A DNA stretch of 64,000 nt, taken from NCBI GenBank assembly GCA_052327205.1, contig CM126221.1, positions 77,562,001-77,626,000 of the forward strand. Reading direction: 5' to 3'. The DNA comes from Somniosus microcephalus. Lineage: Eukaryota. Of this stretch, positions 33,849 to 44,366 are shown piece by piece (position 1 is the stretch's first letter; each line of letters starts with the position of its first letter). The position numbers were made by a program, and so were the translations under genes. Below the pieces are notes generated by a model. It made no database searches. It worked only from the letters and a program-made list of their open reading frames with translations, and had not been told where the DNA came from.

Positions 33849-34015
33849 GTTCATGTCCATGTTTCCATGTTCGCAGGCAGCGCAAGGAGCGCATGTCAAC
33901 CCTAGCACCCCACCCACCCGTCCCTTCAACTACCGTCTACCCCACCTGTGACAGAGACTGTAGGTCCTGCATTGGACTCATCAGTCACCTGCGAACTTAT
34001 TTTTAATGTGGAAGC

Positions 34016-34161
34016 CCTTTCCTTGGATCGCCACCTTGTCGTGGTGGAGAGGCTTGTGTGAACCTATGAACCTGTGAGCAATGCCATCGGGAGCACAGCT
34101 CTTGGCAGGGTCAACCAAGGCGGTAAGGTCAAGGGGGAGGTTCCAGACGAAGTGCAATCCA
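34016..34161 (+). ncRNA. Candidate HDV-like self-cleaving ribozyme at the RTE 5' end
   Basis: P1 CCTTTCC/GGAGAGG, P2 GGATCGC/GCAATCC, P3 ACC/GGT, L3 TTGTCGT, J4/2 CGAA; P1 starts at the first base after the TSD. Confidence 0.72.
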
Positions 34162-36983
34162 TACCAAGTCCTCAACGGTGGAACAGGTGGCTGGCGGTGG
34201 TAACTCTGAGTCACTTTGGTTCTGCGAGAAGCACCACAACGGCTGTGAAGGCAGAAGAAGGCTGCAGCAGAGAGGGGTCTCCAGTCGTCTCGGTTTTTCC
34301 TTGCCACTGGACCCTGGCCCCTTTTCTGTCAAGGATCGTGTGGTGGCTGGCTGTGCACCAACCACCCCACGCTAAAAGATACCACGCACAGGCGTCCTTC
34401 AGAGGGATCTACATTTACCTCTACAACACGCCGGCGTAAAGTCCTGTGGCGATCAGTAAGTGGTGATGGGGGCAGGATTGTGAGGTCTGGAAGCTCCTAA
34501 TCACAAGCTGGCACACTAGGCGGTGGGTGTCTGATTCAGTCGTCGGGCTCCAGGATCGAGGCAGGGGAGCCCCCCGGCAGCTACATCCACGACTGAGCAG
34601 CCCTATTTAGGATCCGCTCTGCTCACCCTGAACAGGGAGGGGGCTAGAAAAGGTGCCCCAAAAATAGCATGCCACAATAACACCCTGTCTGGAATACCGC
34701 ATCCAGAGGGGTCACCAAAATGCGGTCCTAAAGACAGAAAATTGAACTTCGGAGCATGGAATGTGCGGACACTAGTAGACAGTGCAACAAATGATCGGCC
34801 GGAGAGAAGGACGGCCATCGTATGCAGAGAGCTGAAACGATGCAACATTGATATAGCGGCCCTATCTGAAACTCGACTAGCAGAAGGTCAACTGAAGGAG
34901 GAGAAGGGGGTTTACACATTCTGCTGGAAAGGGAAGCCAACGGAAAACCCCTGGATCCATGGAGTTGGATTTGCCATCAAAAATGAACTTGTTAGCCAAC
35001 TCTCCGAATTTCCTGTGGGAACCAATGAACGCCTCATGAAAATGCGTCTAACCCTATCCAACAATCAGATGGCAACAGTTGTGAGTGCGTATGCTCCCAC
35101 CCTGGATTCGCTAGATGAAGTAAAGAAGATCTTCTATGCTGACCTGGCTAAAACCTTGTCTGGTATCCCAAAAGACGATAAAGTCATTCTTCTTGGGGAC
35201 GTCAATGCCAGGGTCGGTTGGGATTACCAACTATGGAAAGGCATCATAGGAAAAGAGGGCATCGGAAAGTCCAACTCAAACGGACTACTTCTTCTCACTA
35301 AATGTGCTGAGCACAACCTCAATCACAAACACTTTCTTCCGACAAAAAAACAAGTACAAAACCTCCTGGAGGCACCCCCGCTCAAAACTGTGGCATCTCA
35401 TTGACTATGTCATTGTACGGGCAAGGGATCGTCGTGATGTTCTGGTCACTAGGGCCATGTTCAGCACTGATGACTGCTGGCCAGATCATCGCCTTATCCG
35501 AGCAACTATGTCCCTCAAACTAAAGCCCAAGATACGTGCTTAGAAGAAGCAGTTATGGCCAAAATTAAACATTGAATGTCTTGAGGACACTGCCATACAG
35601 CAGTGCTTTCAGGATTCCATCAGGCAAAGTCTTCCAAAGGAATACCCACATGATACTGGAGAACATTGGGAACTGCTGAAAGCCACTATCCTCAACACCT
35701 CCCAGAACATACTCGGTTTCAAGTCCAGGAAACATCAGGACTGGTTTGATGAGAACGACTCAGAAATTGAGCAGCTCATAGAAAGGAAAAGGAAAGCTTT
35801 CTGCACCTGGCAAAACAACATCAGCAGCAAGGCCAAAAGAGAGGCTCATGCTAGAGTTAAGGCAGATGTCCAGCAGAGAATAAGGGAGATGAAGAACAAC
35901 TGGTGGTCTCAAAAGTCCCTAGAAATACAACATATGGCTGATACTGGGGACTCCAGAGGCTTCTTCAGTGCCACCAAGGCAGTTTTCGGACCAAGCTACC
36001 GTGGCTTAAACCCCTTACGCTCTAAGGACGGTTTAACTCTGCTCAAGGACAAGGAGGCAATTGACACAAGATGGAGGGAGCATTTTCAAGAACTGCTCAA
36101 CCGACACAGTAGCGCAGATCTGGAGTCCATCAATCAATTACCGCAGAGACCAGAAAGGGAGGAAATGGGGGCACCCCCAAGCATTGTAGAAGTGCAGAAT
36201 GCCATCAGGTCCATGAAAAACAACAAAGCTGCCGGCTCAGATGGGATTCCAGCAGAAATCCTTAAAAAAGGTGGCCCTGAGCTCCTGACACACATACATG
36301 CCTTCCTCCTAAAAATATGGCAGCAGGAAGAAATTCCACAAGATCTCAGAGACGCTTTGATTGTTACTATCTTTAAAAAGGGGGAAAAGTCAGTGTGTGG
36401 TAACTACCGAGGTATCTCCCTTCTTTCTTCCACAGGAAAAGTGCTTGCCCGTGTCCTTGCTAACAGACTTTTGCCGTTATCTGAGGAGGTGCTTCCGGAG
36501 TCGCAGTGTGGTTTCCAACCATCCAGAGGAACAGCTGATATGATCTTCACAGCACGTCAATTACAGGAGAAATGTCGTGAACAAAAGCAACCACTGTTCA
36601 TAGCTTTCATAGACTTAACTAAAGCTTTTGACACCGTCCACCGCCAGACTTTATGGCATATCTTGTCTAAGCTTGGTTGCCCCGATTAATTCATCTTAGT
36701 TCTGAGGCTGCTACATGACAACATGTCCGCAGCAGTTCTCAGCAGCAGCGGTTCTATTTCAGAGCCCTTTACAGTTGAGACAGGAGTAAAACAGGGCTGC
36801 ATCATTGCTCCAACCCTTTTTGCAGTGTTCATCTCAGTTATCCTCCATCTCATCGGCAATGATCTGCCCACCGGAATTCAAATCCTTTACCGTACTGATG
36901 GCCGACTTTTCAATCTCAACAGGCTTAAGGCCAAGAGCAAAGTCTCCATCACTACCATTATGGAGTTAAAGTATGCAGATGAT

Positions 36984-39900
36984 TGTTATGTCCGTGTATC
37001 TTAATGTTGTGTCCTTCAATAATCAGACAACAGTCTGCAGGGAACGATTCAACAGGTGTTTACTGAATGAGGGTTACTCTAGAACTAACTTTACAGATCA
37101 CTACTCAGGGTTTATATACAGGTGTGGTCACTGCCGGTACTACAGTATACAGGAGCTGTAAAAAGTAGTTCTCTCCCTTAAGGTATATATACATTACATA
37201 CATTACAATTCCTCCTCTTTTAGATTAACAGTACCATAATACTCATTTAACAATTAACATTTTTAATATACAATGTTATATGAAAATAGTCCATTCATAT
37301 ATTCAGTCTCTGGGGAGGCTTCCTGATTCTTTCTGGATAACGCCTTTCCCGAGTGTCTCGCTCTTGGTGCGGAGGCGATTCTAGCACCCTGTCGTCAGTT
37401 GATTCATCAGCTTCTAATGCTATTGTTTCTGAGGTAGATGCGACCTGTACGTCGGGTTCCTCACCAGGTACGTATGGCCGAGACATGGGGTTGACTCGTT
37501 CCTGTGACTCTAGGATCTGGTCAGCATGGCGTCTCACAATGTTCTCACCAACATCCACTGTGTACGTTAGTGGCCCCTGCTGTGTGCATATCGTTCCTGG
37601 CTGCCATTTTTCTGTTCGGTAGTCGCGGGCCAAGACTGGTTGCCCTACATTGAAGCTCCTTGTTGGCTTCTCATTGATGTGCTGGAATTGCTTACTCTCA
37701 ACATCTCTTCGTACATTGGTCTGAGCAAATCCAGACGAGATCTCAACCTTCGGTTAAAGAACATCATGGCCGGGGCCTGGTTGGTGACTGCATGTGTCGC
37801 ATTTCTGTAGGCTAACAGGAAATTGTCCACCTTATGCTGCAGTGGAATGTCGTCATCGCACATGGCCTTTACTGCTTTTTTAAAGGTTTGTACGAACCTC
37901 TCAGCCAATCCATTTGTGGCTGGATGATACGGGGCGGATGTGTAATGCCTTACCCATTCATTTTCATAAATCTTCGAAACTCTTCGGACACAAACTGTGG
38001 TCTGTTATCAGAGCAAATCTGCTCTGGCAAGCCGATCCTGGCAAAAATGGTCCGTAGGACTGCAATAGTTTTCTCCGTGGTGGTGGAGGACATTTTGATC
38101 ACCTCAGGCCATTTTGAGTGCGCATCCACGGCTATTAAAAACATTGAGTCCATGAATGGACCAGCAAAATCAATATGCACCCTTTGCCATGGAGATGAGG
38201 GCCACTCCCATGGGTGTAGAGGGGCATGTGGTGATGCATTTTGGACCTTCTGGCATCCTGAGCAGCTCTTTGTCAGGTCCTCGATTTGCTGATCGATCCC
38301 CGGCCACCACACATAAGCCCTAGCAAGGCTTTTCATTTTCACACCTCCCAGATGACCTTCGTGAAGCTCATTGAGCACTCTCTCCCTTAACTTGGGTGGA
38401 ATTACCACTCGGGATCCACACATCACTGTCCCCTGGCATACTGACAGCTGTTCTCTTCTGGATGAGAATGCCAGCAACAGTGAGTCGCCATGTGCTGGCC
38501 ATCCCTTCACCGTCAAATCATATACCCAAGACAGTGTCGGGTCATTTCGGGTCTCCTTCTCTATACCAGCGTTAGTTACTGGCAAGCATTCAATTATAGT
38601 CGAATGAAATATTTTGACAGGATCCACTGCTGGTGCTTCCTCCGCAGTAGGCAGTGGCAGGCGTGATAGCCCATCAGCGTTTCCATGCTGTTTCATGCCC
38701 TTATACTCGATTTCATATTGGTGCGCCCCTAGAAAAAGGGACCATCTTTGTAGCCGTTGCGCAGTCATCACCGGAACGCCCTTCTTTGGATTAAAGATGG
38801 AGACAAGTGGTTGGTGGTCAGTCAGCAAGGTGAACTTCTGCCCGTGCAGATAGTGATTGAACTTTTTCACTCCCCACACTAGGCTGAGGGCCTCCCTGTC
38901 AATCTGGGCGTAGTTACGCTCGGCTGAGGTTAGTGACCGAGACGCAAAGGCTACTGGGCTCTCCGAGCCGTCCGGGAATTTGTGCGACAGCACCGCTCCA
39001 ATGCCATAGGGTGATGCATCACACGCCAACCGAATTGGTAGTGATGGGTTGAAATGAGCCAACACCTCTTTTGATGTGATCAATGCTTTGCTCTTCTGGA
39101 AAGCTCGTTTACATTCATCACTCCACTTCCATGGTACCCCCATTTGCAGTAGGGTGTTCAGTCGGTGTAGTACGGTAGACAAATTCGGCAAGAACTTATG
39201 GTAGTAGTTCACCAGCCCGAGGAACGACCTCAGTTGTGACACATTTTCCGGTGCTGGAGCCTTGACTACTGCCTCAATCTTTTCAGGGGACTTATGTAAC
39301 CCCTCTTTATCAATAACATGGCCACAATACGAGATCTGCTTCTGGAAAAACTCACATTTGTGGCGATTAGCTCGGAGCCCATATTCCTTCAATCTAGTGA
39401 GCACCTGCTCCAGGTTGGCGAGGTGATCACTGTCATTTTCACCCATGACCAGGATGTCGTCCAGATAACACTGGGTCCCTGGAATCCCTTGCAGGACTTG
39501 TTCCATTGCCCTTTGCCAAATAGCCGGAGCTGATGCTACCCCGAACACCAGCCGGTTGTATTGGTAGAGACCTTCATGAGTGTTGATCGTGAGGTACAGT
39601 TTCGAGGCTTCTTCTACCTCCATTTGCAGGTACGCCTGGGCCAGATCAATCTTAGTGAAGCGTTTCCCTCCAGATAGCGAGGCGAAAATATCTTCAATCC
39701 GCGGAAGCGGATATTGTACAGTGTGAAGGACTGGGTTCACTGTCACCTTAAAGTCCCCACAGATGCGAACCTTCTTTGGTTCCCCAGGCGTATTACTCAA
39801 CGACCTCTTCATTACAGGAATGATGGGTGTAGCCCACTCGCTCCAGTCCACTTTGGACAGTACTCCTGAACGTTCCAAACCTTCCAGCTCTGCTTCGACG

Positions 39901-42116
39901 GCTGGGCGGATCGCATAAGGTACCGGTCTGGCCTTAAAAAACTTTGGGCTTGCATTTTCCTCTATTTTGATCATCGCTGTTATGCCTTTTAGTGTTCCGA
40001 GTCCCTGCTGGAACACTTCTTGTGCGTCAGTTAGCATTTTTGACAGTCGTCCAGGTGTGACGTCGTCATCCTTTTTGGCATCTACAGTCAGTGCTTGTAT
40101 GGAATGCCAATCTAGCTGTATCTTCCGGATCCATTCACGTCCTCCATCTGGCAATACATATAAGTCCATTTTTGGTGTTTCCTTGCCGTTATATATAAAG
40201 TTCACCCTTATTTTTCCTTTGGGGTAGACTTTTTGCCCCATGTATGTCTTCAAGACAATCTTTGTATCTCTCAAGGGTATATGTGAGAATAGCCGCTTGT
40301 AGTCCCTTCGGTTTATGACTGTAAGGGCTGATCCTGTGTCCAATTCCATTTTCACTTGGACTCCTGCTATCTTGAGCGTGACCCAGATAGTTTGGTGATC
40401 CTCCGTTTTGATCACATTATATAGTTTCAGACAACCCAGCTCCTTGCTTCCGGAGTCTGTATCACTCTTCTGTTCTTCTGAACTACTCTCCGTCACCTTA
40501 TGTACCTTCTTGTACTTCTTCTGTGGAGATTTCTTGCTGCTGGTTTTCTTTCCCGACCTGCAGACTCTTGCTGTGTGTCCTACTTTTCCACACTGTCTGC
40601 ACACTTTGTCCTTGAACCAGCAATCATTATGGTCGTGTGTTGTTCTGCCGCAGCGATAGCACTTCACTGTTCCGTATGACATTTCATTTGTGCCATATTC
40701 TTGCGGTCTCCGTTGTATCTCTGCAGCGCCCCGTGCTGCTGCTTTGTGTGATACTGCAATGCTGAAAGCCTTGTCCAGCATAAGATCCTTTTCTGATAGA
40801 AGCCGTTTCTGGGTTCCTTCACTTTGAAGCCCACACACAAACTTGTCCCTTAAAGTATCTGCTAGTCCCGTTCCAAACTGGCAGTGTTTCGATAGCTTGC
40901 GCAGTTCCATTAAATACTCAGCATTACTTTCATCTTTATGCTGGTTCCTTTTGTGAAACTTAAATCTTTCTGCTATCAGCAGCGGTGTGGGGTTTAAGTG
41001 GTCCTGTAGGATTGACACTATGTTTTCAAAATCCTTTTCTACTGGCTTCTCTGGGGTTACTAGGTTTCGTAGTAAGCCATACGTTTTTGCACCCATTGAA
41101 TTCAACAATACCAGCGCTTTCTTGTCATCTGGCACTTCATTCGCCTTGCAGTATACTTCTATGCGTTCGACATATGTCGTCCAATCTTCGACTTCATTGT
41201 CGAACGCTGTGATACTGCCACTCTTCGGCATTTTTGGGTGTGGTTAGACTGGCTTAAAATGGCGTCTCCCGTGCTTTCCTTTCTTCCCCGCTGCGGCTTA
41301 AAATGGCATCTCCTGCGCTGCTGCCAATGCCGCTCTCGGCGGTCCTCGTGGCAAATGGCGACGCCCTGTGCGTTTCGTGTGCTGCTCCTGCACTGCTGCC
41401 AACACCGTTCTCTGCAGTCCTCGTGGCAATGGCAGCGCCTCGCGTTTTCCTGCACGCCTCTCTCCCCCGTTGACGCTGCTCGGCCCTTGAACACCGGCTG
41501 CGCTCTGCTCTCTCTCGTCTCTCCCCCCCATTGACGCCGCTCGGTCCTGAACACCGGCTGCGCCCTGTGCGCTCTGCCCTCTGTCTCTCCCCCGTCGACG
41601 CTGCTCGGCCTTTTTCTGTGCCGCTTGGTCGGGTTCTAGCCCACCGCTGTCCGGGAAGGGTCTGCGCAGTACCTGTTGCCAGCCCGTTTTGCTGGACCAC
41701 CGTGACTGGAAAGCCAAGCCTGACTCTCGACAGCCTCCCCTGCGATGCTCAAATCTCCGCTGGATGACTGGGCGGTTGCCCATGGTCGACGCCCGTGCTT
41801 CTGGAATCGACCTTCTTCCACCGTTCTCCAGGAGCGAATCCCTGGGAGGTGATGCAGAGTTGCAGGTAGGTTCGAATCTGCGTCGTCGCCAATGTTATGT
41901 CCATGTATCTTAATGTTGTGTCCTTCAATAATCAGACAACAGACTGCAGGGAACGATTCAACAGGTGTTTACTGAATGAGGGTTACTCTAGAACTAACTT
42001 TACAGATCACTACTCAGGGTTTATATACAGGTGTGGTCACTGCCGGTACTACAGTATACAGGAGCTGTAAAAAGTAGTTCTCTCCCTTAAGGTATATATA
42101 CATTACATACATTACA
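36984..42116 (-). mobile_element. Gypsy (Mag-like) LTR retrotransposon 2, full length
   Basis: 224-bp LTRs 36984-37207 and 41893-42116 differing at 2 sites; TSD ATGAT/ATGAC; PBS TGGCGACGAC; PPT AAAAGAGGAGGAA. Confidence 0.97.
37295..41231 (-). pseudogene. gag-pol polyprotein of Gypsy 2 (1093-aa open, two frameshifts in integrase)
   Basis: Same motifs as Gypsy 1; frameshifts ~37950 and ~37715; PPLLG deleted in the protease region relative to Gypsy 1. Confidence 0.93.
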
Positions 42117-44366
42117 ATGACAACGCCATCACAGCTCTTTCCGAGCATGATCTACAAAACACCTTGAATGCTTTTTCCAGAGCCTACAAACTTCTGGGCC
42201 TCACCATGAATATAAAGAAGACCCAGGTGCTCCACCAGCCATCACCTAATCAGCTTGCAACTCCTCCCTCTATAAAGATTGATAATAACACCCTTGAAAA
42301 TGTCAACACCTTTCCATATCTTGGTAGCCATTTATCCTCCAAAGCTGACATTGATTCTGAAATCCATCTCCGTCTGAGTTGTGCAAGTGCAGCCTTTTCT
42401 AAACTGAGGAGGAGAGTCTTTGAAAATCATGACCTCCAAGTCCAACCTAAAATTTTTGTATACAAAGCCATCATCCTTCCCACCCTGTTATATGGAGCTG
42501 AAACCTGGACTACGTACAGTAGACATCTTAAAGCCTTAGAGCAATACCACCAACGCTCTGTACGCAAAACCTTGAGGGTCAGCTGGGAGGACAAGCATAC
42601 CAACTGGAGTATACGTGAAGAGGCCAATATCTACAGCATCACGACGCTCATCGTGCAGCATCAACTCCGATGGATTGGACATGTCATTCGCATGCCAGAC
42701 TCACATCTCCCAAAACAGGTTCTGTACTCCCAGTTGAAGGAAGGGCAGAGGTCTCCTGGTGGTCAAAAGAAGCATTACAAAGATAACATCAAAGTAATCC
42801 TTAAAAAGTTCCATATCGATATTAATAACTGGGAGGAAATCGCACTGGACAGAGACAATTGGAGAAAATGCATCCACAACGGGGCCGCACTACATGAAAA
42901 GAATCTCCAGCGTGCCGCTGAGGATAAACGCCAGCGCCGTAAGGAGAGACAACAACTTAAGAAGACCCATACTCCAGTTACTACCAATAGTCTTACATGC
43001 CCACACTGTAGTAGAGTCTGTGGATCTCGGATTGGCCTCCACAGCCACCTGAAGACCCACAAGTAGATGACTGATGAAGGACATACCATACTCGAATTCG
43101 AGTGACCGCTGATGATGAATGTGGAAGCAAGTCATCCTTCCGAGGGACTGCCTAAGAAGAAGAAGAAGAGTTTCCAGGTAGTCATGGAAGGTTCCCTTTA
43201 CCATTTGCATAGTTGGCCAGTGTTTTTTGGACGGACTCTAGATTTAGTCTTTGGTTCGCCCATATGCTTCACAGAAAGCCTGCCAGGAAACAACACTGAC
43301 ATGTCCATGGTGATGTCTATGTGCAACAGCATTCTGACTTACCTGACCAAGGAGCGCGTTGTGGATTCAGCAACTAACTTAGGGAGTGAAGTGAGACCAT
43401 AACAGATGTATTGTTTAATCTAAATAGATAACTGCGAGTACATGTTGTTTTTCTCTTATGTAAAATACTGTTATTACTCACACACAGCAGTGCTAGTTAA
43501 TTATAGGTCTGCGAAGAGTCACTGGTAATACACTGCCATCGCTGTCAGAGCCACCATTTCTTTGTCTTTGAAGTAGAAATATTTAACTTGCAGCACATTG
43601 AAGGGAATATGTTATTTCAAACGTGACATTTTTAAAGGGAAAAGTAGTTTGTGGAGGCAATAAAATGCATAATTAAAAATAATCTATTGAGTAAACATGT
43701 TTACAATGAATTTTCGCATTTATTTTCTGTTTTCAATTTTTGTGACAAAAACTTATATCCTTCCAAATAAAGTTACCCATTTTGTTAAAGATGAGTTAAG
43801 GAAGATCACAATGGCCATTGAACCGGTCATCACAATATAGAGCAGGAGTTGGAAAGACAAACAGACCTATAGAATAAAAAATAGAAGGAACAGGTCAAGT
43901 CCAAAAGGGAGCGATTTTCTCAAAGTCCAGCAAAGGGTGGAGCAGTAGTTCACAACATCTCGAGGTGCTTCAGGAAGGGGTGTGGTATTCCAGCCTCAAG
44001 GAAAAGCTGGCCTCTTGGGTGATGTCTAGTCAGCTGCTGAACTGGCGGTTTCCCTCAGTAGATGCAAACATCACGTTATTACAAATGGGGATTGTTTCCT
44101 TATCGAATACTTATACAGGAGTACCTCAGCGAAGTATGCTTGGCCCCACTCTGATTGTTGCCTTCATCAGTGACGTGGAAAATGTCATGAGAGTGACATC
44201 NNNNNNNNNNNNNNNNNNNNNNNNNNNNNNNNNNNNNNNNNNNNNNNNNNNNNNNNNNNNNNNNNNNNNNNNNNNNNNNNNNNNNNNNNNNNNNNNNNNN
44301 NNNNNNNNNNNNNNNNNNNNNNNNNNNNNNNNNNNNNNNNNNNNNNNNNNNNNNNNNNNNNNNNNN

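Follow-up and report, generated by a model that had tools for sequence, protein, structure and literature searches.

A slightly decayed HDV-class fold, probably self-cleaving, that heads an RTE-like retrotransposon in Somniosus microcephalus

HDV-like ribozymes at retroelement 5′ ends were reportedly described by Ruminski 2011, and Weinberg 2015 is said to be the source of the HDV variants from C. briggsae and Ackermannviridae. Such ribozymes are known to head RTE, Baggins, R2, R4 and L1Tc elements (PMC5786205, PMC6765202, PMC3774820). The classical consensus has a purine at position 1, whereas the fold described here begins with C1. Variants of the class that share this feature are already on record. 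In fungi, HDV variants whose cleavage-site pair is C-G undergo self-cleavage at the P1 base (Li & Breaker 2017, PMC5640933), and their features were missed by older descriptors (PMC5640933). The C. briggsae ribozyme, which has been crystallised, likewise starts with C1, forms its P1.1 from U:A plus C:U and cleaves with a kobs of 9.3/min (PMC13635239). Neither the class, nor its location, nor the C1 variant is new.

The locus compared here with these systems lies in a 64,000-nucleotide stretch of Somniosus microcephalus DNA (the window), where an RTE-like element spans 34016-43117 between two 11-bp target-site duplications (TSDs; Table 1). The element has a single ORF with APE endonuclease and RT, relatives in the form of ~1050-aa APE-RT proteins, TSDs of 7-12 bp in its family with A first in 5/8 as called (the window counted), and a microsatellite-like 3′ end; RTE elements are described as having 7-15-bp TSDs, often with A first, and a microsatellite-like 3′ end (PMC6007223). 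None of the protein relatives returned by the search is labelled RTE. The clade is presumably RTE, judged by architecture. The first-pass annotation had called the element full-length; both ends are indeed present, but the APE-RT ORF of this copy carries a frameshift and stops and is split by a 5.1-kb LTR retrotransposon. In the inserted LTR element both LTRs are retained, and its minus-strand frame of 1097 aa encodes protease, RT, RNaseH and integrase. It interrupts the YADD codons of the RTE, where an apparent TSD of 5 bp contains one mismatch. The RTE itself lies in sense orientation within the 3′ fragment of another element, ~30 nt ahead of the (AAG)n tail of that fragment (33872-34015, 43129-43170); that host element is very abundant and transcribed, and its C2H2-like C-terminus resembles that of the RTE. 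RNA reads of this flanking repeat join 34015 directly to the sequence after the 3′ TSD (321 and 870 reads), and the junction at 34015/34016 is fixed independently because these reads span the empty site. The 5′ end at 34016, originally placed from the TSD, thus rests on the 11-bp TSD, the empty-site reads and the genomic copies, which agree.

Table 1. Predicted ribozyme segments and annotated parts of the RTE-like element, in window coordinates.
Feature	Position	Strand	Remark
5′ TSD, 11 bp	34005-34015	+	last four bases able to pair with 34052-34055, rivalling the first P1 pair and P1.1
P1, 5′ strand	34016-34022	+	begins with C34016, base 1 of the element, where cleavage is predicted
P2, 5′ strand	34024-34032	+	
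P3 and 7-nt L3	34033-34045	+	P3 34033-34035/34043-34045, L3 34036-34042; G34038 is the L3 side of P1.1
P1, 3′ strand	34046-34052	+	G34052 pairs with C34016
P1.1, 3′ side	34053-34054	+	C34053-G34038 pair; U34054 opposite U34037
P4 domain	34058-34144	+	basal helix 34058/34060-34064 with 34139-34144, long irregular stem, small hairpins at ~34090-34102 and ~34108-34116
Kink-turn-like motif, bulged strand	34065-34072	+	3-nt bulge 34065-34067, G34068, A34069, A34070, C34071, C34072
Kink-turn-like motif, opposite strand	34134-34138	+	A34138 opposite G34068; G34137 opposite A34069
J4/2	34145-34151	+	CGAA at 34148-34151; C34148 is the candidate general acid (C75 equivalent)
P2, 3′ strand	34152-34161	+	bulged U34153; A34156 reflects decay in the window copy
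5′ part of single APE-RT reading frame, broken	34535-36983	+	without in-frame AUG in the open stretch ahead of the APE domain
LTR retrotransposon	36984-42116	-	within the RT coding region, separate from the ribozyme
3′ part of element	42117-43117	+	C2H2-like C-terminus and (GAT)n tail
3′ TSD, 11 bp	43118-43128	+	

From its first base, the element carries the nested double pseudoknot of P1, P1.1, P2, P3 and P4 that defines the HDV-like class, as recovered by sequence tests, and every segment named in the first-pass annotation (P1, P2, P3, L3, C34053 and the CGAA of J4/2) lies where it had been placed. The L3 of the window carries the U20 and G25 equivalents (U34036, G34041), two nucleotides that the search pattern fixes in homologues. 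Against the commonest letter, the window copy differs at 5/146 positions, one of which breaks a P2 pair. The mismatch and the bulge noted earlier in P2 are both present. The mismatch is decay of the window copy, since A34156 is G in 39/44 copies, while the 3′ bulge at 34153 is common to many families. A descriptor of the core, tailored to this locus, matches the window at 34033 alone and matches 0/200 dinucleotide-block shuffles. Rfam scans give no HDV-family match, and the drz-agam and CPEB3 models do not match the window; pseudoknot-free energy folding is no better than for shuffles, with z at +0.61 in the window copy and -0.91 in a second copy, L322, and the MFE structure of the window copy differs from the HDV fold. 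Additionally, flank bases 34012-34015 can pair with 34052-34055, which lowers the C1-G pair probability from 0.89 to 0.32 in a partial fold that serves as a rough guide; this flank-P1.1 competition is present in only 2/28 base-1 copies. Every core pair is intact in 9 of these 28 unique copies (L002, L004, L005, L006, L011, L016, L020, L025, L026). Leader pairing with J1/4 is reported to inhibit P1.1 and cleavage (PMC8495972), and the window copy is predicted to cleave poorly within its own flank. An RNA covering 33990-34170 carries the flank predicted to compete with P1.1, so a cleavage assay on it may give a false negative.

The CPEB3 ribozyme has G1 and forms P1.1 as C22-G, where the present fold has C1 and an L3 purine. 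In both, L3 is 7 nt long and P1.1 consists of one pair next to a U-U, but CPEB3 is intronic and has a short P4, in contrast to the P4 of ~90 nt at an element 5′ end seen here. The purine at position 1 of classical HDV and CPEB3 ribozymes is absent. Fungal HDV variants have the same C-G cleavage-site pair. They also carry an extra nucleotide at the P2/P3 junction, possibly comparable to the one here, which pairs with covariation and leaves a bulge on the 3′ strand. The fungal P4 contains an E loop, a motif that we take to be AGUA/GAA and that is absent from the window P4, where column 49 is instead a covarying Watson-Crick pair within a far longer domain bearing a kink-turn-like motif, unlike the fungal form. 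Moreover, the fungal variants are tied to no retrotransposon in section 7 of PMC5640933, whereas the present fold heads an RTE-like element. The C. briggsae ribozyme shares C1, and both it and the Ackermannviridae phage RNA share the J4/2 cytosine and a P1.1 of one Watson-Crick and one pyrimidine-pyrimidine pair, the latter being U21:U38 in the phage RNA, like the U-U predicted here; both differ from the long-P4 form in their U:A P1.1 pair and short P4, and the available parts of PMC13635239 name no RTE link for them. The first-pass annotation had proposed a variant ribozyme subfamily. The C1-G pair and the non-canonical P1.1 on which it relied are real, but they alone make no new subfamily, because both are already described and active (PMC5640933, PMC13635239). 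Judged on its letters, the window fold appears to work like the fungal and C. briggsae variants, with neither the classical G1 consensus nor the fungal E loop.

Phage HDV-like and theta ribozymes (PMC10879173) form a further point of comparison. Phage contigs L094, L124, L196 and L062 share the C1-G pair, the same L3 and a G-C P1.1, but have a short P4 without a kink-turn, whereas the long P4 and the kink-turn-like motif are both present here. The L094 family (dozens of contigs, gut-type), L124, L196, L061 and L062 (1479-1541, 740-803) hold minimal HDV-like folds with C1-G, a purine-on-L3 P1.1 and P1 covariation, and the folds of L124 and L196 lie near tRNA genes. Theta ribozymes have a minimal P4 and a cleavage site at a tRNA 3′ end; the window fold has a ~90-nt P4 and a retrotransposon 3′ fragment as its upstream flank, and in the two phage matches with a same-strand tRNA, the tRNA does not adjoin the 5′ side of the cleavage site, as theta ribozymes require.

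Genomic copies define the 5′ end of the family. A DNA search of the 6.4-Gb genome of the same species, in which 40 of 93 candidates were scored and 30 loci fetched, yields alignments beginning at base 1 in 21 of the 29 other fetched loci and at bases 2-10 in the rest; four matches reach 1-13 nt into the flank of the query, and their own flanks are mutually different. A second copy set was found via the APE protein, to avoid selecting on the 5′ end, and its 69 loci (a count that takes in the window itself and a few segmental duplicates) start at base 1 in 24 cases, at bases 2-9 in 20 and further inside in 25. The flanks of 22 unique base-1 copies share no letter from -1 to -15. Variable starts upstream of P1, which would have spoken against the earlier reading, are not seen among these copies. 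Longer stretches were fetched for 20 copies, 11 without a 3′ end in range and 9 with a 3′-end match; among the latter, a TSD of 7-12 bp ends at -1 in 7/9 (one ambiguous by 1 base) and none is found in 2/9. The flanks diverge at P1 base 1 in other families too. Variant rates among the genomic copies are 8.8% in the ribozyme versus 9.6% in the downstream UTR at CpG sites and 1.9% versus 1.45% elsewhere; no selection on the ribozyme is seen among these copies, its rates equalling those of the UTR, as expected because the copies are dead.

Two further observations concern the copies themselves. Eight near-identical copies with the same flank, L075-L082 (G000 C4 105.5-109.0 Mb), lie ~0.4 Mb from one another, a spacing that suggests a large array of segmental duplications. 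Eight of 20 truncated copies (L327, L328, L330, L332, L338, L341, L379, L384) are cut off at the 3′ edge of the ribozyme fold, with starts between element positions 123 and 157, and such truncations possibly reflect stalling of reverse transcription; the cluster is not established, with 6/10 in the discovery set and only 2/10 in the later set (p=0.11).

Homologues were collected from metagenomes with a pattern in which L3, the inner P3 pairs and two short motifs farther downstream were fixed, while P1, P2, the P1.1 partner and J4/2 carried no constraint. It returned at least 108 loci; among the matches listed, 11 are too short to link, 89 are linked to the family of the window element by similarity downstream of the pattern (one of them excluded by eye as a false link) and 8 are unlinked. 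For the structure set, the metagenome matches were grouped by eye into families and 23 representatives were taken, to which one copy from the shark genome was added, and copies with the family's shared 5′ segment were preferred. Covariation was assessed on a sequence-only MAFFT alignment of 25 rows, with the structure drawn from the window. Paired cells amount to 84.6%, versus 73.9 +/- 0.8 in shuffles (0/500) and 33-51% when the structure is slid, and 22/31 pairs show double-sided changes spread over P1, P1.1, P2, P3 and P4, counts that are inflated because the representatives are related. Conservation of L3, the inner P3 pairs and the kink-turn 5′ strand is not evidence, since the search pattern fixes them.

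Among the individual helices, P1 pairs 7/7 in 22/24 representatives (offsets 16-20 nt); over 5000 P1′ permutations, the number of representatives paired in this way averages 7.0 and peaks at 13. Among the matches listed, it pairs 7/7 in 46/59 unique linked matches versus 0/9 unlinked ones, and the first pair is C-G in 41/46 unique full-P1 matches. The P1.1 pair with the L3 purine is G-C in 15 of the 25 rows, A-U in 8, G-U in 1 and unpaired in 1. The J4/2 cytosine is kept in 24/25, followed by any nucleotide and then AA, the AA being present in 25/25; neither was part of the metagenome pattern. P2 is the most variable in register. Its outermost pair (column 13) forms in 14/25 and columns 14-21 are paired in 16-23 of 25, and J1/2 is taken as 1-2 nt because that outermost pair is weak across families. 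The top P2 pair, between the nucleotide beside P3 and the base after J4/2, covaries (CG 12, UA 9 of 25). The 3′ bulge usually adjoins this top pair, with a different register in some families, and the bulge register gives 149/192 P2 pairs versus 93 without the bulge. In a fixed-register test of P1, P2, P3 and P1.1 together, 14/24 representatives pass, and 9 of the 10 failures involve P2; by comparison, a single one passes among 76 distinct controls from prokaryote and viral collections that match the pattern only, the control pattern there having fixed J4/2 instead. Prokaryote and viral scans for the long-P4 form give a single passing match, on a 596-bp contig. A loose 13-nt core pattern tried in the shark genome was discarded, its 438 matches falling below the 910 of the reversed control and being mostly unrelated repeats.

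The covariation found in P1-P3 (25 rows) agrees with the earlier proposal, and the HDV topology from element base 1, the C1-G pair and the purine-on-L3 P1.1 hold across families. At the level of sequence comparison, the boundary, the helices and the conserved cytosine can be regarded as demonstrated. A chance resemblance, in which a pyrimidine-rich start and a purine-rich stretch are misread as HDV helices, could draw on the failure of single-sequence folding to single out the HDV structure and on the missing Rfam match; it is nevertheless extremely improbable and already largely refuted, given that composition-keeping permutation never reaches the observed P1 pairing, that double-sided changes reach all five helices and that so few pattern-only controls pass.

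The elements headed by the fold are of more than one kind. An RTE-like ORF match is found in only 8/46 linked metagenome matches with at least 700 nt downstream, among the matches listed, and many linked matches are 260-760-nt elements with TSDs and microsatellite tails. A flanking repeat occurs in 18/51 linked elements among the matches listed, ending exactly at the called P1 start in 7 and within three bases of it in several more. Loci L219, L229, L236, L239, L254, L264, L277, L307 and L311 are TSD-flanked elements of 260-550 nt headed by the same fold. These short ribozyme-headed elements are likely bipartite non-autonomous RTE derivatives, and the metagenome contigs with related 5′ ends appear to be animal DNA.

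A kink-turn-like motif lies above the covarying basal helix of P4. In the simple kink-turn signature, two helices flank a 3-nt bulge and the G-A and A-G pairs that come after it (PMC5435971), and the window sequence follows this signature, with G-A and A-G appositions and then C-G pairs. The opposite strand, free in the search, has A in 22/24, G in 13 or U in 10 of 24, and G in 24/24. Additionally, L494, found without the 5′-strand constraint, has the same pattern. On these letters, P4 possibly carries a kink-turn.

A second, sister RTE-like family in the same genome has ~73% APE identity to the ribozyme-headed family. Its four longest 5′ stretches give no match to the ribozyme model; hence probably not every such element needs the fold. 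Its two longest copies (L355 ~838, L358 ~736) both seem to start with a CAAGATGG motif, which we take to be YY1-like, and this family may use a promoter instead of a ribozyme. The 5′ UTR of the window element is ~700 nt, and a second motif within it, at ~34270-34400, is common to the ribozyme-headed and sister families; it may be the conserved RTE 5′-UTR domain of PMC5786205. Farther along, 30/35 copies lack an in-frame Met in the open stretch ahead of the APE domain, and window positions 34742-34744 read UUG, at the site where the APE-RT ORF begins with Met in several relatives and in the sister family. The absent Met fits a non-canonical initiation that would take place on uncapped RNA.

In the reading that we consider probable, 34016-34161 is a slightly decayed HDV-class fold, likely self-cleaving 5′ of C34016, that would free the element RNA and set its 5′ end. 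A transcript entering from upstream would fold into the double pseudoknot and be cleaved 5′ of C1, with the J4/2 cytosine acting as general acid by analogy to the C. briggsae system (PMC13635239); the product would be a 5′-OH RNA beginning at base 1, and complete reverse transcription would yield copies starting at base 1. That C1-G variants cleave at the P1 base is carried over from the literature on other members of the class, whereas for this family we infer both cleavage and release from read-through transcripts. The folded 5′ end may later protect the uncapped RNA or help a non-AUG start. Two published statements count against this reading: G1 is listed among the invariant nucleotides in a review (PMC8495972), and a large HDV-like ribozyme cleaved little when its J1/2 was 1 nt long (PMC4908430). 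Two RNA read sets reach a depth of 0-3.4 over the ribozyme with no pile of starts at 34016, a coverage too thin to speak either way, and among indexed sequencing runs containing the ribozyme sequence none is on record as RNA.

The sharp 5′ end by itself fits an internal promoter or read-through equally. In a dual system, an internal promoter in the 5′ UTR would drive transcription and the ribozyme would only trim the element's own transcript, not host read-through RNA; L1Tc, for which Pr77 plus L1TcRz has been proposed to act in this way, offers a precedent (PMC3383444), and the length of the 5′ UTR with its shared second motif is in keeping with it. We judge this unlikely, as RTE and baggins elements are described in a review as being without promoters of their own (PMC6765202) and base-1 cleavage matters only if transcripts begin upstream. 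Quite unlikely, too, is a fold that is real but non-catalytic or very slow, kept for protection, protein binding or translation while a transcription start or another nuclease sets the 5′ end. The C1-G pair and single-pair P1.1 do depart from the classical consensus, the large P4 with its kink-turn-like motif exceeds the needs of catalysis, and an HDV fold is reported to protect RNA 5′ ends in R2 templates (PMC13708176); against this, the J4/2 cytosine and the following AA are conserved outside the metagenome pattern, both the C1-G pair and a weak P1.1 have active precedents, and in several families P1 begins exactly where the element does.

Beyond the self-cleaving reading lies a broader one, which we put forward as speculative and on balance doubtful. 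Here the fold would represent an undescribed, widespread HDV subclass on autonomous and short non-autonomous animal RTEs, whose P4 kink-turn would recruit a host L7Ae-family protein (Snu13/15.5k) to the uncapped 5′-OH RNA, stabilising it and aiding non-AUG translation, while the fold would stall reverse transcription and produce 5′ truncations at its 3′ edge. Searches of open-access literature turned up no account of RTE elements with this build, nor of an HDV P4 kink-turn, though such elements may already figure in Ruminski 2011, Weinberg 2015 or two supplements; the C. briggsae sequence and the fungal alignment supplements are relevant to the question whether earlier work records this P1.1 orientation and the P2 bulge. 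The P4 kink-turn, if true, is the part with real upside. Descriptors demanding G1 and a C-G P1.1 would overlook such ribozymes, and RTE UTRs serve as templates in RNA gene-writing platforms (RTE-1_MD; PMC13708176). For the retrotransposons themselves, a self-cleaving fold would give a concrete answer to how a broad RTE-type group may define its 5′ ends and be expressed from any landing site.
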